DNA from: Chiloscyllium plagiosum
Taxonomy: Eukaryota
Direction of reading: 5' to 3'
DNA: 53,763 nt
NCBI RefSeq assembly: GCF_004010195.1
Contig: NC_057757.1
Coordinates: 6,386,879-6,440,641, forward strand
How positions within the stretch are numbered: position 1 is the first letter of the stretch; the number at the start of each line of letters is the position of its first letter. Below the pieces are notes generated by a model. That model saw nothing but the letters and a program-made list of their open reading frames with translations. It was not told where the DNA came from and did not search any database. This document shows, in pieces, positions 5,331 to 53,614 of this stretch. The translations under genes were made by a program, and so were the position numbers.

Positions 5331-7154
5331 TAAGTAGTGGCTCAGGGATGGACAGGACTGGCAGCTTCATGTTCCAGGATACAAATGCTATAGGACTGAA
5401 AGAAAGGGGAGCAAAACAGGAGGTTCAGTAACATTTTTGATAAGAGGTAATTGCCATAGTGTTAAGGGTTTAGATGGAGTTTGTACAAGAAAATTTTCTG
5501 ATTCAGTATGTGGATGTACCTGCTAGAGAAGGTGCAAACTTGACCTGCTTTTGGGAAATAAGGCAGGGCAGGTGACTGAGATGTCAGTGGGGACAGCACT
5601 TCGGGGCCAGCGACCATAATTCTATTAGTTTTAAAATAGTGATAGTAAAGGATAGACCGGATCTAAACGTTAAAGTTTTAAATTGGAAGAGGCCAATTTT
5701 GACGGTACTAGGCAAGAATGTTCAAAAGCTGATTGCGGGCGGATGTTCGTAGGTAAAGGGACGGCTGGAAAGTGAGAAGCCTTCAGAAATGAGACAACGA
5801 GAGTCCAGAGACAGTGTGTTCCTGTCAGAGTGAAAGGCAAGGCTGGTGGGTGTAGGGAATGCTGGATAACTAGAGAAATTGAAGTTTTGGTTAAACAAAA
5901 GAAGGAAGCATATGTCAGGTATAGACAGCAGAGATCGAGTGAATCCTTAGAAGAGTATTTAGGCAAGAGGAGTATACTTAAGAGGGAAGTCAGGAGGGCA
6001 AAAAGGAGACATGCGATAAGCTTTGGCAAATAGAGTTAAGGAGAATCCGAAGGGTTTTTACAAATACATTAAGGACAAAAGGCTAACGAGGGAGAGAATA
6101 GGGCCCCTCAAAGATCAGCAAGGCAGCCTATGCGTGGAGTTGCAGGAGATGGGGGAGATATTAAACAAGTATTTTGCATCAGTGTTTACTGTGGACAAGG
6201 ACATGGAAGATATAGAATGTGAGGAAATCTTGAAAAATGTCCATATTATAGAGGAGGAAGTGCTGGATGTCTTAAACCACATAAAGGTGAATAAATTCCC
6301 AGGACCTGATCAGGTGTACCCTCAAACTCTGTGGGAAGCCAGGGAAGTGATTGCTGAGCCCCTTGCTGAGATATTTGTATCACTGATAGTCACAGGTGAG
6401 GTGCTGGAAGACTGGAGGTTGGCTAATGTGGTGCCACTGTTTAAGAAGGGTGGTAAGGACAAGTCAGGGAACTATAGACCAGTGAGCCTGACGTCAGTGG
6501 TGGGCAAGTTGTTGGAGGGAATCCTGTGGGATAGGATGTACATGTATTTGGAAAGGCAAGGGCTGATTAGGGATAGTCAACATGGTTTTGTGCGTGGGAA
6601 ATCATGTCTCACAAACTTGATTGAACTTTTTGAAGAAGTAACAAAGAGGATTGATGAGGGTGCAGCGGTAGATGTGATCTATATGGACTTCATAAGGTGT
6701 TCAACAAAGTTTCTCATGGTAGACTGGTTAGCAAGGTTAGACCATATGGAATACGTGGAGAACTAGCCATTTGGATACAGAACTCGCCCAAAGGTAGAAG
6801 ACGGGGTGGTGGTGGTGGAGGGTTGCTTTTCAGACTAGAGGCCTGTGACCAGTGGTTTGCCACAAAGTATTGAGTCCAATGCTTTTTGTCATTTATATAA
6901 ATGATTTGGATGTGAATATAGGAGGTATAGTTAATAAGTCTGCAGATGACACCAAATTTGGAAGTATAGTGGACAGTGAAGAAGCTTATCTCAGAGTGCA
7001 ACAGGATCTTGATCAGATGGGCTAATAGGCCGAAGAGTGGCTGATGATAGTTTAATTTAGATAAATGTGAGGAGCTGCATTTTGGAAAGGCAAATCAGGG
7101 CAGGAGTTATACACTAAATGATAAGGGCCTGGGAAGTGTTGCTGAACAAAGAGA

Positions 7155-28149: not shown

Positions 28150-31100
28150 TTAGTGTGGCAGATCTGTGTCCAGGTATTTCAAAAAGGGTTGCCATGTCTT
28201 GTAAAAATTCTCAGTTTTGTGATGTACCATATTTGTGAGAAAATCCAGGGGAATATGCTCCATAACAATCCACCAACCCGACAGGACTGGGGTTTTTTCG
28301 GATATCCAACCTAGCAAGATATTCTTCCTTGCACAGAATGTAAGAATATTGAAAAGTTTTTTTCTTATGCGCGTCTGCATGAAATACAATGGGTAGGCCC
28401 AAATGGAGAGAAATAGGGTCCTTCTCCACCCTACACCTAAAATCCTCTCCATTGCACCCACTACAGCGCTCCAATATGTTTGGATCCTGTCACAAGACCA
28501 AAGACAATGGGTAAGAGTGCCTAAGTGGACCCTGTGGAGAATCTTCAACTGTAAAGCATGGGTCCTATTGCAAATTGATATCTTCCTTGTATTCTCCCAA
28601 ATATCCTCCCATGCCTCTGAAGAAACTTCAACACCCAGCTCTCTTTCCACAACTTGCAGAGTTGATCAGACTCATCTGAGGTGGCACCCCCCCAATTGGT
28701 GATATAAAGTACTGACAGAGAGTGTACTCTTAGCCCTTAGTACCCCTCTTTCTATGTCAGATTTGTAGGGATCAGTCAAAAGTGTGTTTTTTTTAAAAAT
28801 AAAATCCCTAACTTGAAAAAAATGAAAGAGGTCTCTATTAGGTAACTCGTACTTCCGTACTAACTGATCGAAGGACATCATTACGTCTCCCTCAAATAAA
28901 TCACCCCTGCAAGATATACCCCTAGCTGCCCAACGTTTAAATCCTGAATCTATCATACCTGGTCGAAAACCCGGCATACCCAGTAAAGGTGTAAACAAAG
29001 ATACTTTGCCAATATTACCGTCCCTCTGCCGAATTGCCCTCCATGCTTTAACAGTGTTGATGACTATTGGGTTATGGCAATATTTCCTAACTGTCCTCAC
29101 CTTGTCCAAAAACAGCAAACTGGTAAGGGGGCATCTTGCCTGGGAGGCTTCGATATCTAGCCATATTGAAAGAGGGTCCTCACAAACCCAATCATTCACG
29201 TAGGTCAAAAGCGAGCTTAATTGGTAATTTTTAATGTCCAGAAGGTCTACTCCCCCAATCTGTGAGGCAACTGCAGTTTGGCTAATTTAATGATGGGCCG
29301 TATACGGTGCCAGATAAAGGAGCTGAACCAACCGTTCAGTCTCCTGAGTGTTTGTTTATTGAAAATCAGGGGGAGCATCTATATAGGGTATAGCAAACGA
29401 GGGAGAATATTCATCTTAATAAGCGCTATCCGACCCAACCACGAGACTGGAAGTGCCTCCCATCTTTGGAGATCTTGTTTCATTTTTTCAAATAATTGAG
29501 TAAAATTGGCTTTAAACAGCCAATCCAGAACTGGAGTAATGAATATGCCCAAATACACAAAACCCCTCTGTGACCACCTAAATGGGAATCTATAGTCACT
29601 CTCAAGAGCCAACTCTTTCATAAGACCACCCATAGGCATAGCCTCTGATTTAGCAAAATTAATCTTGTACACTGAAAAAGCGCCAAACGCATGAATGCAT
29701 TGTATCAGACAAGGCACTGAGACTGTTGGATTTGTCAAGAAAATTAGAACATCGTCTGCATACAGCGAGATCTTATGCAATTTTGACCCCACTTCTGGAG
29801 CTGATATATTGAGATCCCCATGAATGGCCTCTGCCAACGGTTCAATCACCAACGTAAAAAGTAATGGTGAAAGGGGACAGCCCTGCTGGCTGCCCCTAGG
29901 AATATTAAAATTGCTTGATCGTAGCCCGTTGGTAATGACTGCCGCGAGAGGTACACTGTAGAGAACCTTTACCCATCTTATGAAAACTTCACCCAGACCA
30001 AACCGGTCTAGAGTATAGAAAAAGTACGGCCACTCAACTCGGTCAAATGCCTTCTCTGCACCTAAAGAAATCACCAATCCCTGTATTGACTGATGTTGGC
30101 ATACTTGAATTACGTTAAGCAGCCTCCTAAAATTATTGGAGGATCTGCAACCCTTTATGAAGCCCGCCTGATCCTCTTTAATAATAGAGGGTAACACAGT
30201 CTCCAGCCTTAACGCGAGAACCTTAGAGAGGATCTTAAAGTCACATTTAAAAGCGAGATAGGCCTGTATGAAGCACAGTCTTCCGGATCCTTCCCTTTTT
30301 TAAGGATAAGTGAGATATTGGCCTCTCTCAGAGATGGTGGTAGACAATCATGACTGTATGAATCATTAAACATATTCAGCATCGGGCCTGACAGTATACT
30401 TATAAATTCCTTATAGAATTCACTGGGAAGTCCGTCAGGACCAGGCGCCTTTCCACTCTGAAGCTGCCTCACAGCTTCCTGCACTTCTTGCTCTGATAAT
30501 GAAGCATTGAGAAAGGACTGTTGTTCGGGAGTCACACCCGGGAGCTTCAGATCTCTAAAAAAGGATTCCATTTTGGCCTGCCCTTCCTCACAATTCTCAG
30601 ACTGATATAACTTAGAGTAGAATCTCTGGAACGCCACATTAATCTTTTTAGAACACATGTTAGGTTCCCAGACCCTTCCCTAATCGCTGTAATGGTTTGT
30701 GAGGCACTTCTCTTTCTGGTAAGGTATGCTAAGTATTTGCCTGGCTTGTCACCATGCTCGTATAACCTTTGCTTTGCAAAAACCAGCTCCTTCTTTGCCG
30801 TCTATGTGAGCACGGAATTTAGCGCAGACCGCAGTGCCGTAATCCTCTGTAGCTTGACCAACGAGGGTCTGTCAAAATAGGCCTTCTCGGTTGCCTTCAA
30901 CCGTGCTTCAAAGAGACGTTGTTGCTCACCCTTCTGCCACTTCCTACTGGTGGAATATGAAATAACTAACCCCTGGCATAAGCTTTGGCAGTTTCCCAGA
31001 GAACAGGTGAGCTATCAACCGAGCCTATGTTGATGTCTAGGAATACCCAAAATTCCCAAGAGAAATACTCCACAAACTTACTGTACATGAGAATAAAGGG

Positions 31101-35661: not shown

Positions 35662-36522
35662 ACACTGGATCAGTTTAATCAGCCAGGGAACAAATAATCA
35701 CTAGATGATCAGTAAGGTACAAGAACTCAATTTACTTAATGCCTCTAGACAGACAACAGGATGCTGTTAACAAAGTTGTGACAGCACAATGGAGCAGTTG
35801 AACAATTTGCAATTAAGTGACAAATCAAGCTCATATGTTTAAAAACTTCTATGGATCTGGCTTAAAAAAAACCCAACGTAAGTGGCTCCCCAGTTCTTGT
35901 TGATTTCTCATAGCACCGCCCTTGGAGTTCTCATTCTCAATACACAGCCATCCAAGACAGACCTGCTTCTGAAATTAAATGATTTATTGCGCAGCACCTC
36001 AGCTCCTGGCTCATCTTGCAGACCACAGGGAGTTTATCTATTAATCATCTGGTGTAGGAGCCACAGAAAAGGTTAGAATAAAAAGTGTTTGTAGTTTCAT
36101 TGATACGTTATTTGTTCAAACCACTGAGGCTTTCACAGCGTCATTGTCTATCAATTTAAGGCAGAAAATATATTGGTTCAAAGGACCTTGATGCTGTGGA
36201 ATTATCTCATAAAGAGTCCCAACGGATGTGGATCTGGACCTTGAAATGACATCTTACTGGTTACAGAGTGAAAGGAAGAAGCTGAGTGCAGCAGCTTTAA
36301 TTCAGTGTTTAATCTGGGACTACCTGCTGCCGAAAACATCAACCACACCATCGAACTGCATCGATATTCATTATGTTAACAAACCCATAATTTACTCTAA
36401 GATAACGAAAGGGAAGGAAAATCGAGGGCATGTTACTTTCTCTATTTCACTGTTTAAAAAAATGTTTCCCGTATCAATCCTTCAAGTCGCAATCATAATT
36501 CTTCAGTACAATCGCAAGTACC

Positions 36523-36609
36523 TCAAGTCTGAGGAAACTCTGACTGTTCGGTTACAGTTGTCACTGTGCTCTTGAGGGTTGCCAGTCTATTCTGAAACAT
36601 ACTCCACAC
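36523..36609 (-). CDS. Terminal coding exon of a DASH-complex Dad1-like protein (VWSMFQNRLATLKSTVTTVTEQSEFPQT*)
   Basis: Acceptor cctcaccttctttcctgtcAG; phase 0, in frame with exon 41336-41428; TGA at 36523-36525; AATAAA on minus strand at ~35983. Confidence 0.7.
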   Translation of the reverse strand: MWSMFQNRLATLKSTVTTVTEQSEFPQT

Positions 36610-36889
36610 CTGACAGGAAAGAAGGTGAGGTTAACAAACACTTAGAATTCAGAGCTGTGTATTCCGAGCTGACAGCTACAATTTTAAAGAACTATTCAGA
36701 TTCAACCACATGGCTGTAGGTCTGGTGTCCTATGTAAGCCAGACCAGTTAAGGACAGCAGTTTCCTTTCTTAAAAGGACATCAGTGAACTAGTTGGCTTT
36801 TTCCCAACAATGGTTTCATTGTCATCATTATACTCTTGGACCAGAGAGCTGCTCTGACTTTGTTAAAAACACTATAATTCTATATTTCG

Positions 36890-37220
36890 TAGAATCCCTA
36901 CAGTGTGGGAGCAGGCCATTTGGCCCACCTATTCCACACTGACCCACACTCCAAGAGCATCCCACCCAGACCCACCTTGTATCTTATCCCTGCGTTCCCT
37001 ATGGTCAATCCACCCAATCCACACATCCCTGGATACTAGGGGCAATGTACCATGGTCAATCCACCCTAACCTGCACATCTTTGGACTGCGGGAGGAAACC
37101 CATGCAGACAAGAGGAGAACGTGCAAACTCCAATCAGACCATCGTCCAAGGTTGGAATCAAACCCAGGTCCCTGGTGCTGTGAGGCAGCAGTGCTAACCA
37201 CTGAACCACCATGACACCCC
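36890..37220 (-). mobile_element. HE1-type SINE
   Basis: Reverse complement of the HE1 head and body. Confidence 0.8.
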
Positions 37221-37514
37221 CTGGTTGTATTGTTTCAGGATGGTGCAATACTGGATGTTGTTATTCAAATGTTCGAGCCTCTACATAAAAGTTATCACAA
37301 GGCTTTTTCTGATGCATTCCTGAATAAAGTATTAAGCTATTCGGTTTCAGAAAGCAAATGGCAAATTTGATCCAAGTTGAGAATGCTCACCTCAACACTG
37401 CAGCTGCCCTCTGAAATTTACTGCTGCATGGTGTTTAGGAGAATCTCACATGAATTCCTTGTAGTTCAAAAGCAAGTTACTTGTGAAATTCTCTAACTTT
37501 TGTCAGCATACCAC

Positions 37515-39165
37515 TTTTCATGACACATAGGAACAAGCAGGAATAGGCAGTCCTTTGAACACATTCCGCCATTTAACATGATCTAGAGTCATAGTCACAG
37601 AGATGTACAGCATGGAAACAGACCCTTTGATCCAACTTCGTCCATGGCTGATCTTATGAACTCCACTCTCCAGCCAGTCTCCCCATTGCTCTTTATCCCG
37701 CTTTTCATCAGAAACATATCTATTCCTTTCTTGAATCTGTTGACTGATTCTGCTTCCATTGCACTCTGAGGCTAAGACCTCCACAAATTCACAACCCTCT
37801 GAGAGAAACAGTTTCTCCTCCTCTCATTCTATATCTATGCCCTTTTGTTCAAGACTGACCCACAATGGGGAAACATCTGTTCAACATCCACCTTATTATT
37901 TTATATACCTCAATCAGATTCTCCTTCATTCTTCTGAACTCCAGGAAGTACAAGCCCAAGCTATTCAGCCAGTCCTTGTATGACAGCTTTTTCATCCCTG
38001 GAATCGACCTGGTGAACGTTTTCTGAATTGCCTCCAGTGCTGCCACCTCCTTCCTCAAATAAGGAGACCAAAACTGGACACCATATTCCAGATGTGGTCT
38101 CACCAACACCCTATAAAATTGTCTCAACACTTCTTCACTTTTATAATCCAGTCCTTTTGCAATAAATGACAGGATTGTATTTGTCTTTCTTATTATATGC
38201 TGCAACTGCATACCCACTTTCTGCAACTCATGCACAAAGATGCCCAGATCTCTCTGCACTGACACACTTTGAATCTGTTTCCCATTTAAATAATAATTTG
38301 GTCTTTTTATTTTTCTGGGCAAAATGCGACAACCTCACACTTATCTGGGGGTGGCACCATGGCTCAGTGGTTAGCACTGCTGCCTCACAGCGCCAGGGAC
38401 ACAGGTTCGATTCCAGCCTCAAGCGACTGTCTGTATGGAGATTGCACATTCTCGCAGTGTCTGTGTGGGTTTCCTTTGGGTGCTCCGGTTTCCTCCCACA
38501 GTCCAAAGACGTGCAAGTCAGGTGAATTGGCCATGCTAAATTCCCCATAATGTTAGGTGCATTAGTTAGGGGTAAATGGAGAGGAATGGGTCTGGGTGGA
38601 TTACTCTTCAGAGGGTCGGTGTAGACTTGTTGGGCCGAATGGCCTGTTTCCATACTGCAGGGAATCTAATCTAATCAATTTAACTCCGTCTGTCAAATTC
38701 TGGCCCAAACTCCTGGCCTATCAATATTTATTTGTAAACTCTTTATCAGTGTCTGCTTTCCCATCTATTTCACTATCATCCGTGAACTTTGCTACGTTAC
38801 ACTCTGTCCCTGCTTGCAGATCATTTATAAAGATTGGAAATAGATCAGATCCAAGAACTAAACCCTGCAGCACCCCACGAGTTACAGTTCGCCATCAGAG
38901 AAGGACCCATTTATCCCGACCATCTGCTTTCTGTTGGTCAGCCAATCCTCTATCCAAGTCAATACTCTACCTGTCACTCCCTGGGATGAAACCTTCTGGA
39001 AATCTAGATGCGCAACATCCACTGGATCCCTTTATCTACCTTCCTGGTTATGTCCTCAAAGAACTCCAGCAATTTTGTCAAGCAAGACTTGTCCTTCATG
39101 AAATCGTGCAGATATTGGTGAATTGAGCTTTGTTTTTCCAAGTGTTCAGTTATGTCCTCCTTTGT
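37515..39165 (-). mobile_element. CR1 RT/3' remnant with nested HE1 SINE (38348-38676, + strand)
   Basis: ORF 37849-38322 QRDLGIFVH...LVRPHLEYGVQFWSPYLRK; SINE has A/B boxes and an AATCT tail. Confidence 0.85.
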
Positions 39166-39243
39166 GATTTGGAGGAGCTGGTGTTGGACTGGGTGAATCA
39201 AGTTAAAAATCACACAACACCAGGTGATCGTCCAACAGGTTTG

Positions 39244-40998
39244 TAACAAAGAGGATTGATGAGAGCAAAGTGGTGGACGTTACCTATATGGACCTCAGTA
39301 AGGCGTTCGATAAGGTTCCCCTTGGGAAAACTGATTAGCAAGGTTAGATCTCATGGAATACAGGGAGAACTAGCCATTTGGATACAGAACTGGCTCAAAG
39401 GTAGAAAACACAGGGTAGTGGTGGAGGGTTGTTTTTCAGACTGGAGGCCTATGACCAGTGGAGTGCCACAAGGATCGGTGCTGGGTCCACTACTTTTTGT
39501 CATTTATATAAATGATTTGGATATGAATATAGGAGGTACAGTTAGTAAATTTGCAGATTACACCAAAATTGGAGGTGTAGTGGACAGCAAAGAAGGTTAC
39601 CTCAGATTACAATGGGATCTTGATCAGATGGGAAAATGGGCTGAGGAGTGACAGATGGAGTTTAATTTAGATAAATGTGAGATGCCGCATTTTGGGAAAG
39701 CAAATCTTAACAGGACTTATACACTTATAGTAAGGTCTGAGGGAGCGTTGCTGAACAAAGAGACCTCAAAGTGCAGATTCATAGCTCCTTGAAAGTGGAG
39801 TTACAGATAGATTGGATAGTGAAGACAACATTTGGTATGCTTTCCTTTATTGGTCACAGCACTGATTACAGGAGTTGGGAGGTCATGTGCAACTGTACAG
39901 GATTTTGGTTAGGCTAGTTTTGGAATATTGCGTGCAATTCTGGTCTCCTTTCTATCGGAAGGATGTTGTGAAACTTGAAAGGGTTCAGAAAAGATTTACA
40001 AGTTAAAGGATTTGAGCTACAGGGATGAGAATGCGTATAGGGTATGAGCAGATAGGGAAAGAGTTAAGTTTTGAGTTTTGTGAAACAAGAGGTTCAGCTA
40101 AGCATGACTCAGATCAGATAAGAATTTACAGTTAATATTGGAATGCTGGGAGGCAAGAGTAATGGGTTAATAAGGTGGAAAAGCATTCATTATGTAGAGC
40201 CATTTAACAATATTGGAAGCATTCAGTATGAAAGGTCAGTTTAACAAGTATTCATTATGTGAAGCTAGTTAACGTTAAGAACATTCATTGTGTAACAGCA
40301 AATGGCTTAATCTTTACTATTGACACTTGCTGATTGTAATTGTCACCCAATCAATATGTATGTTGCCTTATCTGGATGCTCCTCACTGTAAAGTGACTAT
40401 ATAACTCATTAAGAATCTATTGTTCCAAAGAGAAGACCAAGAACTCATGTACCTGTGCACATGGCTGATCGTTCTCTCTCTCCCTCCAGGGCCTGAAATA
40501 AAGATCGAGGAGGTAAAACTATACTGTGTCTCTGAGCATTTTGCTTCGACTGAGGGAGGGAAACGGGACGACAATAGGGAGAGGCTGAATAGGCTGGGGC
40601 TGTTTTCTCTGGAGCGTCCAAGACTGAGAGTTGAGCTCATAGAGGTTTATAAAATCATGAGGGGCATGGATAGGATAAATAAATAAGATCTTTTTCCTGT
40701 GATGGGGGAGTCCAGAACTAGAGGGCATAGGTTTAGGGTGAGAGGGGCAAGATATAAAAGGGAGCTAAGGGGCAACTTTTTCATGCAGAAGGTGGTATGT
40801 GTATGGATTGACCAGCCAGAGGAAGTGGTGGAGGCTGGTACAGTTGCAACATTTAAAAAGCATCTGGATGGGTATACGAATAGGAAATGGGATATGGGCT
40901 GGGTGCTGACAAATGGGACTAGATTAGGTTGGGATATCTGGTCAGCATGGACGAGTTGGACCGAATGGTTTGTTTCTGTGCTATACGTTTCTATGACT
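39244..40998 (+). mobile_element. CR1 RT-to-3' fragment
   Basis: ORF 39256-39651 SGVPQGSVLGPLLFVIYINDLD...KFADYTK. Confidence 0.9.
40026..40576 (+). mobile_element. Solo LTR inserted in CR1, with 4-bp TSD GGGA
   Basis: CR1 sequence GAGCTACAGGGA|GAGGCTG is split; TG start, TA end (decayed CA); CCAAT ~40347, TATATAA ~40398, AATAAA ~40497. Confidence 0.8.
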
Positions 40999-41335
40999 CG
41001 CTTTTGAAGCACTGCTTCTTCATCAGGTGGTTGTGAAGCAGGACTATAACACAGAATTTATAGCAAAAGATTACAGTGTCATCTTACAGTACAATGTCCA
41101 TTTCAGCTGCATCACACTGTAATCTTTTGCTATAAATTGTGTGTTATGATCCTGCTTCACAACCACCTGATGAAAAAGCAGTGCTGCGAAAGCTAGTGCC
41201 TCCAAATAAACCTATTGGACTATAACTTGATGTTGTTTGATTTTTTAACATTCTCCTCCTTTATGATTGACTAAAAAGATCAAAGCATGACGCACTTGAA
41301 TGAATCTACAACAGAAAGCATCTCAAATCACTGAC

Positions 41336-41428
41336 CTTGGCCATCTTTTCAATTTCCCCAGTCTTCTCAGCCCAGTAGGAGAGGTTCTTGTTCAGCTCAC
41401 CCATTAGTATTACAGCTTCCTCCAGCTC
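41336..41428 (-). CDS. Internal 93-bp exon of a DASH-complex Dad1-like protein (ELEEAVILMGELNKNLSYWAEKTGEIEKMAK)
   Basis: Acceptor ttccctgtccttttgcAG, donor AAG|GTcagt, phase 0-0, open frame, unique sequence. Confidence 0.75.
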
Positions 41429-41589
41429 CTGCAAAAGGACAGGGAACATGGCAAATTCACCTAAAGATAAAACCATATCCTGTCCCTGTCACAAGTTAGT
41501 GCTCTAAGACATTAAGCCCATATCTCTTGGAATCCTGTCTAGAACAGTGTCCCATAGTCAGTTAAGGATCAAATTTGGTGCCCCTCTCT

Positions 41590-44051
41590 CTTTGTTCCGG
41601 GTTTATTTCTCCCGCTCAGCATTTATCCCGGGTTTACTTCTCCCTCTGGGTATCTATCCCAGGTGTATTTCTCCCTCTGGGTATCTTCGCCGAGTGTATT
41701 TCTGCCTCTGGATATCTATCCGGGGTTTACTTCAGCCTCACAGCATTTACCAATGGTTTATTTCAGCCTCACAGCATTTACCACTAGTTTATTTCAGCCT
41801 CACAGCATTTATCATGGATCGATTTCTGTCTTTGGGTATTTATCATGGATTTATTTCTGCCTCTGGGCATTTATCCCGGGTGCATTTCTGCCTCTGGGTA
41901 TTTATCCCAGGTGTATTTTTCCCTCTCAGTATTTATCCCAGGTTTATTTCTCCCTCTGGGTATTTATCCCGGATGTATTTCTCCCTCTTGGTAATTATCC
42001 CGGGTTTATTTCTCCCTCTAGGTATCTATCCCGGGTGTATTTCTCCTTCTCGGTATCTATACTGGATGTTTTTCTCCCTCTTGGCATTTATCCCTTGTTT
42101 ATTTCACCCTCGCTGTAATTATCCTGGGGTTATTTCTACCTCATTCTATTTAAGCCGAGTTTATTTCCCCCTCTCTGTATTTATCCCGGGCTTATTTCTC
42201 CTCCTCGGTATTTATCCCAGGTGTATTTCTCCCTCTAGGTATTTATCCCAGGTGTATTTCTCCCTCTCGGTATTTATCCTGGGTTTATTTCCCCCTCTCG
42301 GTATTTATCCCACGTTTACTTCTCCCTCTCTGTATTTATCCCGGGTTTATTTCACCCTCTCGGTATTTATCCCGGGTGTATTTCTCCCTCCCTGTATTTA
42401 TCCCCGGTGTATTTCTCCCTCTTGGGATCTATCCCGGGTTTATTTCTCCCTCTCGGTATTTATCCCGGGTGTATTTCTTCCTCTTGATATTCACCCCGGG
42501 TTTATTTCTTCCTCTCGGTATTTATCCTGGGTTTAAATCCCCCGCTGGGTATTTATCCCGGGTGTATTTCTCCCTCTCTGGGTATTTATCCCAGGTGTAT
42601 TTCTCCCTCTCGGTATCTATCCCGGGTTTATTTCTCCCTCTCAGAATTTATCCCGGGTGTATTTCTCCCTCTCGGTATCTATCCCGGGTTTATTTCTCCC
42701 TCTCGGTATTTATCCCGGGTGTATTTCTCCCCCTCGGTATTTATCCCGGGTGTATTTCTCCCTCTCGGTATTTATCCCAGGTGTATGTCTCCCCCTCAAT
42801 ATTTATCCCGGGTGATTTCCCCCTCTCGGTATTTATCCCGGGTTTATTTCCTGTCTCGGTATTTATCCCGGGTTTATTTCTCCCTCTCTGTATTTATCCC
42901 AGGTGTATTTCTCCCTCTCGGTATTTATCCTGGGTTTATTTCCCCCTCTCGGTATTTATCCCACGTTTACTTCTCCCTCTCTGTATTTATCCCGGGTGTA
43001 TTTCTTCCTCTCGGTATTTATCCCGGGCTTATTTCCCCTCTCGGTATTTATCCCGGGTGTATTTCTCCCTCTCTGCATTTATCCTGGGTGTATTTCTCCC
43101 TCTCTGTATTTATCCCGGGTGTATTTCTCCCCGTCGGTATTTATCCCGGGTGTATTTCTTCCTCTCGGTATTTATCCCGGGCTTATTTCCCCTCCCTGTA
43201 TTTATCCCGGGTGTATTTCTCCCTCCCTGAATTTATCCCGGGTGTATTTCTCCCTCCCTGTATTTATCCCGGGTGTATTTCTCCCTCCCTGTATTTATCC
43301 TGGGTTTATTTCTCCCTCCCTGTATTTATCCCGGGTGTATTTCTCCCTCCCTGTATTTATCCCGGGTTTATTTCTCCCTCACCGTATTTATCCCCGGTGT
43401 ATTTCTCCCACTGGGTATTTATTACGGGTGTATTTCTCTCTCTCGGGATCTATCCCGGGTTTATTTCTCCCTCTCGGTATTTATCCCGGGCGTAATATCT
43501 TCCTCTAGGTATTTATCCCGGGTTTATTTCTTCCTCTAGGTATTTATCCCGGGTTTATTTCTTCCTCTTGGTATTTATCCTGGGTTTATTTCCCCCTCTC
43601 AGTATATATCCCGGGTGTATTTCTTCCTCTTGGTATTTATCCTGGGTTTATTTCCCCCTCTCAGTATATATCCCGGGTGTATTTCTTTCTCTTGGTATTT
43701 ATCCCGGGTGTATTCCTCCCCCTCGGTATTTATCCCGGTGTATTTCTCCCCCTCGGTATTTATCCTGGGTGTATTTCTCCCCCTCGGTATTTATCCCGGT
43801 TGTATTTCTCCCTCTCGGTATTTATCCCAGGTGTATTTCTCCCACTGGGTATTTATCCCGGGTGTATTCCTCCCCCTCGGTATTTATCCCGGGTGTATTT
43901 CTCCCCCTCGGTATTTATCCCGGTTGTATTTCTCCCTCTCGGTATTTATCCCGGGTGTATTTCTCCCCCTCGGTATTTATCCCGTGTTTATTTCCCCTTT
44001 CGGTATTTATCCTGGGTTTATTTCTCCCCCTCGGTATTTATCCCGGTTGTA
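41590..44051. repeat. Satellite/minisatellite with 31-bp unit TATTTATCCCGGGTGTATTTCTCCCTCTCGG
   Basis: Dozens of tandem units, each made of 15+16 bp related subunits; runs into the gap. Confidence 0.97.
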
Positions 44052-44551
44052 NNNNNNNNNNNNNNNNNNNNNNNNNNNNNNNNNNNNNNNNNNNNNNNNN
44101 NNNNNNNNNNNNNNNNNNNNNNNNNNNNNNNNNNNNNNNNNNNNNNNNNNNNNNNNNNNNNNNNNNNNNNNNNNNNNNNNNNNNNNNNNNNNNNNNNNNN
44201 NNNNNNNNNNNNNNNNNNNNNNNNNNNNNNNNNNNNNNNNNNNNNNNNNNNNNNNNNNNNNNNNNNNNNNNNNNNNNNNNNNNNNNNNNNNNNNNNNNNN
44301 NNNNNNNNNNNNNNNNNNNNNNNNNNNNNNNNNNNNNNNNNNNNNNNNNNNNNNNNNNNNNNNNNNNNNNNNNNNNNNNNNNNNNNNNNNNNNNNNNNNN
44401 NNNNNNNNNNNNNNNNNNNNNNNNNNNNNNNNNNNNNNNNNNNNNNNNNNNNNNNNNNNNNNNNNNNNNNNNNNNNNNNNNNNNNNNNNNNNNNNNNNNN
44501 NNNNNNNNNNNNNNNNNNNNNNNNNNNNNNNNNNNNNNNNNNNNNNNNNNN
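44052..44551. other. Assembly gap (500 N)
   Basis: Run of N. Confidence 0.99.
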
Positions 44552-50278: not shown

Positions 50279-50929
50279 CACTTCCATTCACATAGTGCCT
50301 CAGGATGTTAGTGAAGTACTTCTAAAATGCAGAACTGGCCAAAGAGAGGCAGTGGGGTGTCTTTCACGCACTGGAGAGGGTGACTGGGCTTTAGTTACCA
50401 TCCCATTGACGGCACTGCCAGTCCTGCCCTGGTCATGTGACTTAGGAGTTGGCCATTTGACCCCTCTGCCTTTCAGTAAGGTCATGCTGATCTAACTTCA
50501 GCTTCATTCCGTTTTACTCCTGATCAGTGTTGGACTCCTTCGTCAGTCTGTTCTCTCCCAGAAGGGGATGGATATATCCTCTAAGCCCACCCAGTCAGGT
50601 CTCCTATCTCTCCCTTACTTTCTCCTGTGAGAGTGGTGCCACTGAGCTAGACCTTTGCATGAACAGCAGCAGGCCCTGTTCAATGGCTGCTCTGTATCTG
50701 AACTCGCATCAATCTCCCTTGAGTCCACATCCTTTGTTATTGCTTTATCTAAGTAAGTATATCTCTGATTTGAAATGACTAACTGAGCTGCAGCCTCATG
50801 CCTTTTCACGAGAGTGAGTTCCTCAATTCTACCACCCAAAGAAGTGTTTTCTAACTTTCCTGCTGTACAGGGGCATGGATTTTAAAACAGGGGGGAGTCC
50901 CCGGAAACTTTCACGCCATTGTGCATATT

Positions 50930-51555
50930 GCCTTGTTCTCTCTGTCTCTCTCTCTCGATCTGTGTCTCGCTTGTGCTCTCACTGTCTGACTTGCTCTCTC
51001 TTATCTGTCTCTCACTCACACTCTCTATCTCACTCGTGCATTCTCTCTGTCTAACTCGCTCGCGCTCCCTCTCTGTCTCTTGTTTGCTCTGTCTCTTGCT
51101 GCAATTCTGTCAGTCGCTTGCACTCTCTGTCTCTTGCTCTGTCTGTCTCTCGCCCTCTGTCTCTTGCCCTCTGTCTCTCTTGCTCTCTCTCTGTCTTTCT
51201 CACTCCCTCTCTGTCTGTCTCTCTCTCCCTCTCTCTCTCACTCACTCACTCCTTCCCTCTCTGTCTCTCTCGCTGTCTCTCTCTCACTCCCTCTCTCTCT
51301 GTCTGTCTCTCTCACTTCCTCTCTGTCTCTCACTCCCTTTCTGTCACTCTCTCACTCTCTGTCTCTCGCTCTCTCACTCTGTCTGTCTCTCTCACTCCCT
51401 CTCTGTCTCTCTCTCGCTCTCTCCCTGTCTGTCTCTCTCTCACTCCCTCTCTGTCTCTTACTCCCTCTCTGTCTCTCACTCTCTGTCTCTCTCTCACTCC
51501 CTCTCAGTCTCTCTCTCACTCTCTCTGTCTCTTGCTCTCTCTCTGTCTCTCTGTG
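50930..51555. repeat. CT-rich compound microsatellite
   Basis: CTCT/CTGT/CTCA repeats. Confidence 0.95.
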
Positions 51556-51671
51556 ACTGAGTGATGGAGTTTTAATGCCCCATTGTACAATGGTGGTGGC
51601 TTGTGTTCAGTTGGAGGGGGGATGAACGGCCGTGGGACTTGGCTAACCCAGTGCTCAAAGCACTAAGTAAC

Positions 51672-52120
51672 TTGGATTTGATTTATCATTGTCCCATGTA
51701 TCGAGGTACAGTGAAAGGCTTGGTTCTGTGTGCAGTACAGGCAGCTCATACCATACAGAGTGTATTAGGGTGATAGAACAGAGCGAGGAATACAATGTTA
51801 TGGCTGCAGAGAAAGTGCACAGAGACCGAGGGCAACATTAAAATTAACATCTGAGAGGTCAATTCAGAAGTCTAATAACAGTGAGGAAGAAGCTGTTCTT
51901 GAATCTGTTGGTACGTGTTTTGTACCTTCTGTCTGACAGAAGCGGTTGGAATGGATTATAACCGGGGCTGGAAGGGGTCATTGATGATGTTGGCTGCAGT
52001 CCCGAGGCAGTGGGATTTACAGATGCGGTCAGTGAATGGGAGGCTGGCTTGTGTTCTCGGGATGTGGGGGGAGTGCCATGCAGAACTGTGCTCTGGGTTC
52101 CAGCCGTGGGCTGCCGGCAA
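51672..52120 (-). mobile_element. Rex1/Babar-type LINE 3' fragment
   Basis: PGYNPFQPLLSDRRYKTRTNRFKNSFFLTVIRLLN; homologous to 21560-22045. Confidence 0.75.
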
Positions 52121-52204
52121 TTTGCAGCTCTGCTAATCTCCGTGTCCCCCACCCCCGCCTCATTACTCCAAGCCCTAGGTGGTTACCCGCAGCATTGCAG
52201 GAAG

Positions 52205-52521
52205 TGTGTGTGTCTGTAAATCTGTGTGTGTGTGTGTCTGTGTGTGTGAGAGAGAGAGTGTGTGGGTGGGTGTGTTTGTGTGAGAGTGTGTGTGCATGTC
52301 GGTGCGTGTGGTGTGTGTCTGTGTGTGAGAGTGTCTCTGTATCTGTGTATGGGTGTTCAGTGAGTGTGCACCTGTAAGTCTGTGTTTGTGTCTTTGAGTG
52401 AATGTCTGTGAGTGTGCGTCTATGTATGTGTTTGTGAGTGTCTTTGTGAGTGTGTTTCTGTGTGTGTGTGTTTCTGTGTATGTGTGTGTTTCTGTGTATG
52501 TGCGTGTGTGTCTGTGTGTGT
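52205..52521. repeat. GT-rich compound microsatellite
   Basis: (GT)n with interruptions. Confidence 0.95.
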
Positions 52522-52633
52522 AAAGGGGGTAGGTTTCCAGCTCCCCTCTCCCTGGTGTGTGTCCCGTTCTGTTCTGCTCCCACTGACGTGTCCCTGTTTC
52601 TTGTCTCTCTTCCCCCTCCACCCCCACCCGCAG

Positions 52634-52685
52634 TGGTTCCAGCAGCAGCATGGTCGCCATCGACAACAAGATCGAACAGGCCATG
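52634..52685 (+). CDS. TSC22D: Internal exon of a TSC22 domain family gene (TSC22D4-like): (S)GSSSMVAIDNKIEQAM
   Basis: Polypyrimidine tract ending ccgcAG, donor ATG|GTaaga, 52 bp; VAIDNKIEQAM is the start of the TSC box; paralog not certain. Confidence 0.93.
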
Positions 52686-53614
52686 GTAAGATGGCTGAGC
52701 CATTCCTCATGGGTTTTATCCTGTCCCCCCTGGGGCATGGCTGGGACGAGACCACTTCTGCTGCCCGTCCCTAGTTGCCCCTTGAACCGAGTGGCTCTCC
52801 TGGCCTGTTTCAGAGGGCAGTGTGGAGTCAGGTGTAGGGTAGACCCGGGTGAGGGCAGCAGATTCCTTCCCGGCACGGGGCACCAGCCAATCGGATAGGT
52901 TTTCCTGACGACCAACCGCATCACGGTCTCTCAGTCCCACTGGTTTGTTTTATTTGTTCAAATGTCCGTTCCCCCCCCAGCCTCCGTGCTGGGGTCGCTC
53001 GTCCGACCTCGGCTACCTGCACCTCCCCGGTGGCAGGGTGAACTTTGCATTGAGGTGGCGCCTTGCTCATCCTGAAGTGGGCTGTGTGTCGCCGTGCAGT
53101 CAGGCCCAGCAGTTTGACGTCAGCCTGGAGCTTGTTCCCCCCCGGCCTGTGTGCGCCTCAGGCCAGGCTGCAGGAAGCCTGAGGCCCGAGGAGTCAGGCC
53201 TGTGTGGGCCCCAGTGCCCACTCCAGTTCCCTGAGCCCCGGTGCCGTCACTCAGAGAAGGCCTGCCTCTTTGTTGAGCTGCGTTGGGCAGGTGGATCGAA
53301 GCAGGAGTAGACCATTCAACCCCTCGAGCCTGTTCCACCACGTAGTGGCTGATCTGCGGCCTACCTCCGTCAACCTGCCTTTGGCCTGTAGGCCTTCATT
53401 TCCTCACTGATCTGAAGCTCCTCAGCCTCCGATTTTGAAATCTGGCCTTTGTGTGTGAGGATTGGTTCCTAACGTCTCTCCTGAGTGGGCTGGGCCCAAT
53501 ACTGAATGTGCCCCCTCGTTCCCGAGACTCCCATCTGAGTGGGAAAGGGTTTCTCTATTTGCCCTTTCCCGTTCTTGTATGTCATTCCAGGGTGTCTGAG
53601 AGAGACATGGTCCT

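Follow-up and report, generated by a model that had tools for sequence, protein, structure and literature searches.

Can a vertebrate genome hold a gene for a subunit of the fungal Dam1/DASH complex? The Dam1/DASH complex and the Ska complex (SKA1-3), its functional analogue in animals with the same microtubule-coupling job, are a textbook case of non-homologous replacement. The two hardly ever occur in the same lineages, and this pattern fuels a debate on whether the last eukaryotic common ancestor had the two together or whether DASH was passed on by gene transfer. The question is raised here by a locus of the carpet shark Chiloscyllium plagiosum, located in a stretch of 53,763 nucleotides (NCBI RefSeq assembly GCF_004010195.1, contig NC_057757.1, positions 6,386,879 to 6,440,641 of the forward strand) that we call the window. 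From the letters of the window, two minus-strand exons had been predicted to form a spliced gene fragment resembling the DASH subunit Dad1. The findings presented here identify them as exons 2 and 3 of a gene with three exons, which encodes an 86-residue protein. With good confidence, we regard this gene as real, transcribed and a divergent member of the Dad1 family in jawed vertebrates, most likely an orphan relic.

The two exons and their transcript

Both exons were recovered with exactly the coordinates, canonical splice sites and translations that had been predicted. Exon 2 (41336..41428, minus strand) is a coding exon of 31 codons in phase 0-0, supported by its sequence, AG/GT sites, translation, tblastn and a sequencing contig. 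On the minus strand, it is flanked by ...ttttgcAG on its 5' side (acceptor 41430-41429) and by GTcagt on its 3' side. Its translation, ELEEAVILMGELNKNLSYWAEKTGEIEKMAK, falls approximately on positions 16-46 of the Pfam profile for Dad1 and carries the conserved L-N-x-N-L ... W ... G segment. The coding part of exon 3 (36523..36609, minus strand), supported by its sequence, tblastn and contigs, is preceded on its 5' side by ...cctgtcAG. It consists of 28 codons, translated as VWSMFQNRLATLKSTVTTVTEQSEFPQT and carrying the invariant V-W-x-x-F-Q motif, followed by a TGA stop codon (36525-36523). The exons are separated by intron 2 (36610..41335, minus strand; 4726 bp), which begins with GT at 41335-41334, ends with AG at 36611-36610 and is packed with interspersed repeats, among them reverse-transcriptase fragments (RVT_1 match in the open reading frame 39247-39648). 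Downstream of the stop codon, a 3' untranslated region (3'UTR) of at least 723 nt with candidate poly(A) signals occupies 35800..36522 on the minus strand.

The Dad1-like gene gives rise to a spliced, polyadenylated transcript. Four public sequencing runs were compared with window positions 35800-41500. A contig from run X6 (record 18, 736 nt, depth 35) aligned through its positions 85-182 with 41334-41431 and through its positions 183-736 with 36054-36607. The joint coincides with the predicted exon 2/exon 3 junction, allowing for 2-3 nt that fit either side, and the joined peptide is that of a protein already deposited at NCBI (P0003, described below). The first 84 nt of this contig match nothing in the window and have the size expected for an 81-nt exon 1 plus a few bases. 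Contigs from X1 (record 1, 1137 nt) and X10 (record 9, 1696 nt) also break at 36607; they cover 35800-36607 without interruption and continue beyond 35800, the edge of the compared stretch. The organism and study codes of X1, X6 and X10 all differ, and none of these runs is on record as RNA. We took them as RNA because coverage of the unique intron bin 37328-37518 is missing (depth 0 in X1, 0 in X6 and 13.8 in X10), most other intron bins having a very high summed repeat depth. In addition, the raw reads of X19, a poly(A) single-cell RNA run, covered 36182-36563 in a single orientation (first mate on the plus strand, depth 9.6-12.7; on the minus strand, 0).

Comparison of the window with the X6 contig revealed 2 differences in 180 coding nt and 18 in 469 nt of the 3'UTR, a contrast that is only suggestive (Fisher p=0.08). 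The listed coding difference, T>C at 36547, was found in both X6 and X10 and is synonymous (GAA>GAG). The reverse-transcriptase fragments of the intron, transcription and splicing under three species labels, and the orthologues in jawed vertebrates described below all bear out the original view that the locus is not a fungal contamination.

A family of jawed vertebrates and its likeness to Dad1

When the open frame of 60 codons that surrounds exon 2 was used as query, a protein search retrieved two shark proteins. The first, 'hypothetical protein chiPu_0021689, partial' of Chiloscyllium punctatum (P0003, 59 aa), is the product of exons 2 and 3 letter for letter. The second, 'uncharacterized protein LOC132835275' of Hemiscyllium ocellatum (P0004, 86 aa), adds a 27-residue N-terminus to the two-exon product; it is intact and differs from the Chiloscyllium gene product in 4 residues. 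When P0004 was compared by phmmer with 1.84 billion representative proteins, 17 matches were obtained at E<=1e-3, 11 of which constitute one family, its members being mostly 57-106 aa long. The match from shark to ray reached E 2e-23, and the vertebrate proteins are clear mutual homologues. Among the Chondrichthyes, the family comprises the carpet sharks Chiloscyllium and Hemiscyllium ocellatum and the electric ray Narcine bancroftii. The remaining members come from Actinopterygii (the tarpon Megalops atlanticus and the sturgeon Acipenser sinensis), Amphibia (the frogs Xenopus tropicalis and Rana temporaria and the newt Lissotriton helveticus) and six turtles (Caretta, Eretmochelys, Natator, two Lepidochelys species and Gopherus). 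The Rana orthologue is already named 'DASH complex subunit dad1-like' at NCBI and has a precomputed PF08649.16 match. The Gopherus evgoodei member (P0032, 143 aa) bears the source name 'protein diaphanous-like', apparently a misnomer of automatic annotation.

An alignment of 10 family sequences (A1) contains six invariant columns (N42, L43, G51, V59, W60 and F63). Its profile was also searched against an index of 5.8 billion proteins, a search limited by shared 5-residue words, and returned 11 proteins, all vertebrate, with no fungal Dad1 and no new lineage among them. In a family tree of 12 rows, ray-finned fishes, frogs and turtles were grouped as in taxonomy. Not included in it were P0003, which is partial, a set of isoform, extended or frameshifted duplicates (P0007, P0008, P0010, P0019 and P0024), further members of the turtle cluster and P0011. 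As judged from these sequences, the gene is conserved across jawed vertebrates; it is gnathostome-wide and not specific to sharks.

Scanning of 13 family proteins against Pfam placed DASH_Dad1 (PF08649) as the top family in 12, with E<1e-3 in 8; the sole miss was the partial 57-aa sturgeon protein, which had no PF08649 match. In the full-length proteins, the match was co-linear, starting at position 2 of the profile and ending at 52-55 of 55. The best score was that of the ray protein P0005 (E 7.5e-8, 32.9 bits), which lies above the curated cut-off of 31 bits. It was followed by the Rana protein (E 1.2e-6, 29 bits), six other members at 2.6e-5 to 2.5e-4, including the shark P0004 (22.2 bits), and three turtle proteins (E 0.004-0.03). 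For the window's own 59-aa product, DASH_Dad1 was likewise the top family, at a score (E 0.076, 13.6 bits) below the cut-off. The DASH_Dad1 membership of the shark product rests on transitivity, because the vertebrate proteins are clear mutual homologues.

Two further searches pointed in the same direction. In the reverse search, the A1 profile was compared with the 177,635 sequences of the PDB, and the top match was the Dad1 chain of the fungal Dam1/DASH heterodecamer, 6cfz_F (E 3.9e-4, 23.6 bits). Positions 13-68 of the profile aligned without gaps with residues 3-58 of the chain (56 residues), and the next PDB match had an E value of 0.047. A feature search of the ESM Atlas found Dad1 clusters nearest (0.92 and 0.91, with 206 of 256 features shared) and mixed Dad1/Dad4 clusters next. 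All of its ten best named matches belonged to one family or clan, a result that, as the tool warns, one third of shuffled proteins likewise reach. The same search with a generic coiled-coil exon, that of golgin-45, yielded scattered coiled-coil families, with 1 of 10 concordant. Pfam, the reverse PDB search and this language-model search thus agree with the original claim of a spliced Dad1-family gene in a cartilaginous fish.

Dad1 proteins are small (about 70-110 aa) and all-helical, with two long helices. The AlphaFold2 model of the 86-aa protein places helices at 6-50 and 53-81 (mean predicted local distance difference test score, pLDDT, 81.8), so that the vertebrate protein resembles Dad1 in size (86 aa versus the 92 aa of the 6cfz chain) and in its predicted two-helix build, as well as in the co-linear match across the whole Pfam domain and in being the best PDB match of the vertebrate profile. 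It differs from Dad1 in its vertebrate host, in scores that mostly lie below the curated cut-off and in the presence of SKA1 alongside. Dad4 (PF08650), the structural paralogue of Dad1 in the other DASH arm, was the only other DASH family found in the Pfam scans. It is the second-best DASH family and shares the mixed Atlas clusters. As the best family, Dad4 was rejected: it matched 2 of the 13 proteins (E 0.018 and 0.062), each time far below the protein's own Dad1 score. According to the accessible part of a recent survey, Dad1 and Dad4 are superposable paralogues (PMC9998035). Homology of the vertebrate proteins to the Dad1/Dad4 family is, on these comparisons, very likely, and the family would be a genuine divergent relative of Dad1, closest to Dad1 itself and next to its paralogue Dad4.

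Several results weigh against this reading. Only 1 of the 13 proteins reaches the 31-bit cut-off, P0004 and the window product being among those that do not, and spurious similarity arises easily with short coiled-coil sequences. Compared singly, the exons had no match in Pfam, being too short alone, and gave weak chance matches to WD40/ATG16 in the PDB. A Foldseek search of the model against the PDB returned no match, and the VIA-align comparison was non-specific, its top match being SYCE3 at Z 8.1, in a range that the tool calls common for helical models. The six other phmmer matches are long proteins hit in 2 to 10 short stretches. A six-frame search of the genome with the Pfam Dad1 profile missed the locus and gave 4 weak matches elsewhere (E 4-9); since the Dad1-like locus itself was missed, such a profile search is blind to genes split in small exons. 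With regard to the family, the Acipenser sinensis record is labelled UNVERIFIED_CONTAM by its source, the phmmer search of the 1.84 billion representatives found no mammal, bird, squamate or invertebrate member, and the tree has no strongly supported fork. As for the locus, the scaffolding error described below is an inference, the 84 nt at the 5' end of the X6 contig being assigned to exon 1 by their length. Finally, the family may be orthologous to Dad1, or it may have arisen before the duplication or from a Dad4-like protein.

Some of these results bear on convergence, in which a real gene would resemble Dad1 through a pair of amphipathic helices alike in length and composition, with no common ancestry. 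The modest Pfam scores (15-33 bits), the coiled-coil-like false positives of the same searches and a fold search that gave only generic helical hairpins are in keeping with it, and so are two published surveys that, in the portions accessible, report no subunit of the Dam1 complex in Metazoa (PMC5439489, 2017; PMC9998035, 2023). However, 12 of 13 proteins have Dad1 as their top family, with matches that are co-linear and span the profile from end to end, and no other coiled-coil family appears in more than 2 of the 13. Dad1 was also picked out of the whole PDB with a 100-fold gap in E value to the next match, the second-best DASH family is its known paralogue Dad4, and the alignment-free Atlas search agrees, whereas there the golgin-45 coiled-coil exon was scattered. 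Moreover, the common positions go beyond heptad hydrophobics and include F-E near the start, L-N-x-N-L, G and W-x-x-F. We consider convergence unlikely and a divergent Dad1 relationship the better reading.

Two other resemblances were examined. In the wide VIA-align comparison, the matches were generic helical hairpins, with the Dam1-complex chain 8q84_K at Z 5.8 among many ties. SYCE3 of the synaptonemal complex (PDB 4r3q), the best structural match (root-mean-square deviation 1.9 over 69 residues), is similar in size and in its hairpin. It differs from the vertebrate protein in that sequence identity is 3% and no SYCE3 family appears in the Pfam tables, besides the commonness of its Z score. 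Of the six long phmmer matches, three were examined, and two were found to be WD40-type repeat proteins and one another tandem-repeat protein. WD40 units of the form ...TAK[LV]WN...L[IA]TL... (P0006 and P0014) mimic the C-terminal third of the protein and, summed over the repeats, reach E 1e-11 in phmmer. A WD40 identity was rejected: the matches lie at query positions ~50-80 only, the 86 aa are predicted to be all-helical and no WD40 appears in the Pfam tables.

Exon 1, scaffold gaps and surrounding repeats

The original prediction had described a gene fragment. The two exons are real; they are not free-standing and represent the 3' two-thirds of the gene, whose exon 1 is on the same scaffold. 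When the 86-aa P0004 was compared with the window by tblastn, only exons 2 and 3 were matched, exon 2 with 97% identity over residues 27-59. The N-terminal 27 residues had a single match in the whole assembly, with 93% identity, at G000:C48:6333645-6333725 on the plus strand. This exon 1 (81 nt, outside the window) has its ATG in a GC-rich region and a donor site reading ...CAG/GTaacc. It is located ~94 kb below exon 2 and on the opposite strand, and it ends 165 bp ahead of a 500-N gap.

Within the window, the 3' part of intron 1 (41429..44051, minus strand) includes a 31-bp minisatellite at 41597-44051 (~79 copies, 84% matches according to Tandem Repeats Finder) that ends exactly at a gap. 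This gap, a run of 500 N at 44052..44551, parts exons 2 and 3 from the remainder of the gene. Further N runs of the scaffold lie at 6333890-6334389, 6361506-6362005, 6363177-6363613 and 6383654-6386878. Exons 2 and 3 are thereby carried by a 44-kb piece with N runs on both sides, with more N runs toward exon 1. Because both parts of the gene abut N gaps and the minisatellite of intron 1 runs into one, the displacement of exon 1 is likely to be a scaffolding error, in which the 44-kb piece was misplaced or mis-oriented. The minisatellite probably caused the assembly break.

The position of exon 1 in the assembly, ~94 kb off and on the opposite strand, would also fit a decaying relic that is transcribed and yields no working protein, the separation then being a true rearrangement in this species; the NCBI model of Chiloscyllium punctatum, which is partial, would agree with it. 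Nevertheless, the open frame and the canonical splice sites are in place, the protein of the sister genus is intact with its 86 aa and 4 differing residues, and in the RNA contig exon 2 is preceded by 84 nt, which agrees with exon 1 in size. In addition, the N gaps and the minisatellite adjoin the breaks, and the invariant residues are retained from sharks to turtles. Such decay is highly unlikely, and the window exons form part of a correctly spliced nuclear gene for a protein with two predicted helices.

Around the gene, reverse-transcriptase (RVT_1) fragments were found on both strands of the window, at 3-272, 6020-6763, 29382-30299 (93.8 bits) and 39247-39648. No neighbouring host gene was recognised among 73 of the 90 open reading frames of at least 90 aa that were compared with Pfam, the matches being retroelement fragments and one sub-threshold CD52 match; the scan left out 17 open reading frames located in minisatellite and microsatellite tracts. 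Long simple-sequence tracts rich in CT/GT lie at ~50880-52700 (51123-51554, for instance, with period 4 to 22) and give rise to long spurious open frames in which S/L/C or T/H/R abound.

Origin, company and possible role

The range of the family raises the question of how it came into jawed vertebrates. Horizontal transfer of the gene to an early jawed vertebrate, with a fungus or a unicellular holozoan (for instance an ichthyosporean parasite of fish) as donor, would explain why no invertebrate, lamprey or other metazoan member was present among the 17 phmmer matches, and vertical descent would require many independent losses in animals. The 2023 survey, in its accessible part, places Dam1-complex subunits in Ichthyosporea and Capsaspora and not in Metazoa (PMC9998035). 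On the other hand, the two introns of the gene are spliceosomal and in phase 0, host repeats are present and the promoter region is rich in GC. Moreover, the gene occurs in all major gnathostome branches sampled, the coarse tree agrees with taxonomy and no donor-like close relative was seen. The absence from other lineages is weak evidence, as tiny genes are often overlooked by annotation; the survey authors themselves, in the part of the article accessible, note that short DASH genes are easily overlooked by gene prediction (PMC9998035). We give transfer a slim chance.

The vertebrate gene was also considered in relation to the other DASH subunits. The six-frame profile search of the genome gave no match at E<=1 for Dad4, Dad2, Dam1, Ask1, Dad3, Spc34 or Spc19. 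Little can be concluded from these negatives, since the exon-by-exon method used for them also overlooked the Dad1-like locus. An over-cut-off match for Duo1 (G000:C24:25078518-25078634) was discarded as a false positive, since it corresponds to a translated minisatellite with LESVTE-type repeats in several frames. The only strong match among the nine other DASH profiles was for Hsk3 (G000:C12:42859031-42859156, 40 bits), and it proved to be an exon of golgin-45/BLZF1, 99% identical to shark golgin-45 proteins. A DASH_Hsk3-like Pfam family is precomputed on every match listed for this exon, including all those named golgin-45/BLZF1 and the human one. With its Pfam 'DASH_Hsk3 like' segment, golgin-45 (BLZF1) is an earlier instance of a vertebrate protein with a helix resembling a DASH subunit. 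It differs from the Dad1-like protein in its length (~400 aa), its occurrence in all vertebrates including human and its name as a golgin; it is no stand-alone subunit and no evidence for a DASH complex. No paper linking Hsk3 with golgin-45/BLZF1 was found among the literature matches listed.

SKA1, in contrast, is present in the genome, with two exons at E 1e-18 and 7e-16. The Ska complex does the same coupling job as DASH and is unrelated in sequence to the Dad1-like protein. The presence of SKA1 makes DASH-type coupling by the Dad1-like protein unnecessary, which argues for its repurposing. By analogy with Dad1 in DASH, the protein would have no catalytic or autonomous domain and would act as a small structural subunit, lending its helices to a multi-protein parallel helical bundle. 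A homodimer prediction with two copies of the protein scored 0.00, with the tool verdict 'no answer', and counts neither way. Because SKA1 is present and no other DASH subunit was detected in the genome search, the most likely reading of the protein is that of an orphan relic of DASH, retained to do something other than form the fungal-type ring. We find it improbable that jawed vertebrates keep the Dad1-family subunit, possibly with more small subunits whose divergence or shortness has hidden them from annotation, beside Ska in a helical-bundle complex that was later lost in mammals and birds; such a complex may act, for instance, in the germline, in meiosis or otherwise at microtubule ends.

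These findings are in conflict with the literature. The two surveys cited above, as far as accessible, list no DASH subunit in Metazoa, and the sequence files of the 2023 survey, in the part of the supplement accessible, include Xenopus tropicalis, Danio rerio, Homo sapiens and Callorhinchus milii (PMC9998035). Literature searches found no paper on a vertebrate Dad1 among the matches listed, and the phrase 'DASH complex subunit dad1-like' was found in no paper. What is new is the recognition of the family, its range and this conflict, not a new kind of protein, and the novelty is limited to recognition because one automatic NCBI name of a frog protein already reflects the likeness.

If the Dad1-family gene is indeed conserved and expressed beside SKA1 in jawed vertebrates, animals would join the lineages that hold parts of both DASH and Ska, and long vertical retention, together with a second function for DASH parts, would be favoured. 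Tractable models such as Xenopus would also be at hand to learn what a lone DASH subunit does. A second, non-kinetochore role of the Dam1 complex has been put forward, in the accessible parts of both surveys, to explain an early eukaryote with both couplers (PMC9998035, PMC5439489). Should the helical-bundle reading be the true one, jawed vertebrates would offer a living example of that role. Altogether, we take the Dad1-like gene to be real and to be an unexpected phyletic member of a known family, of clear interest for the evolution of the kinetochore.

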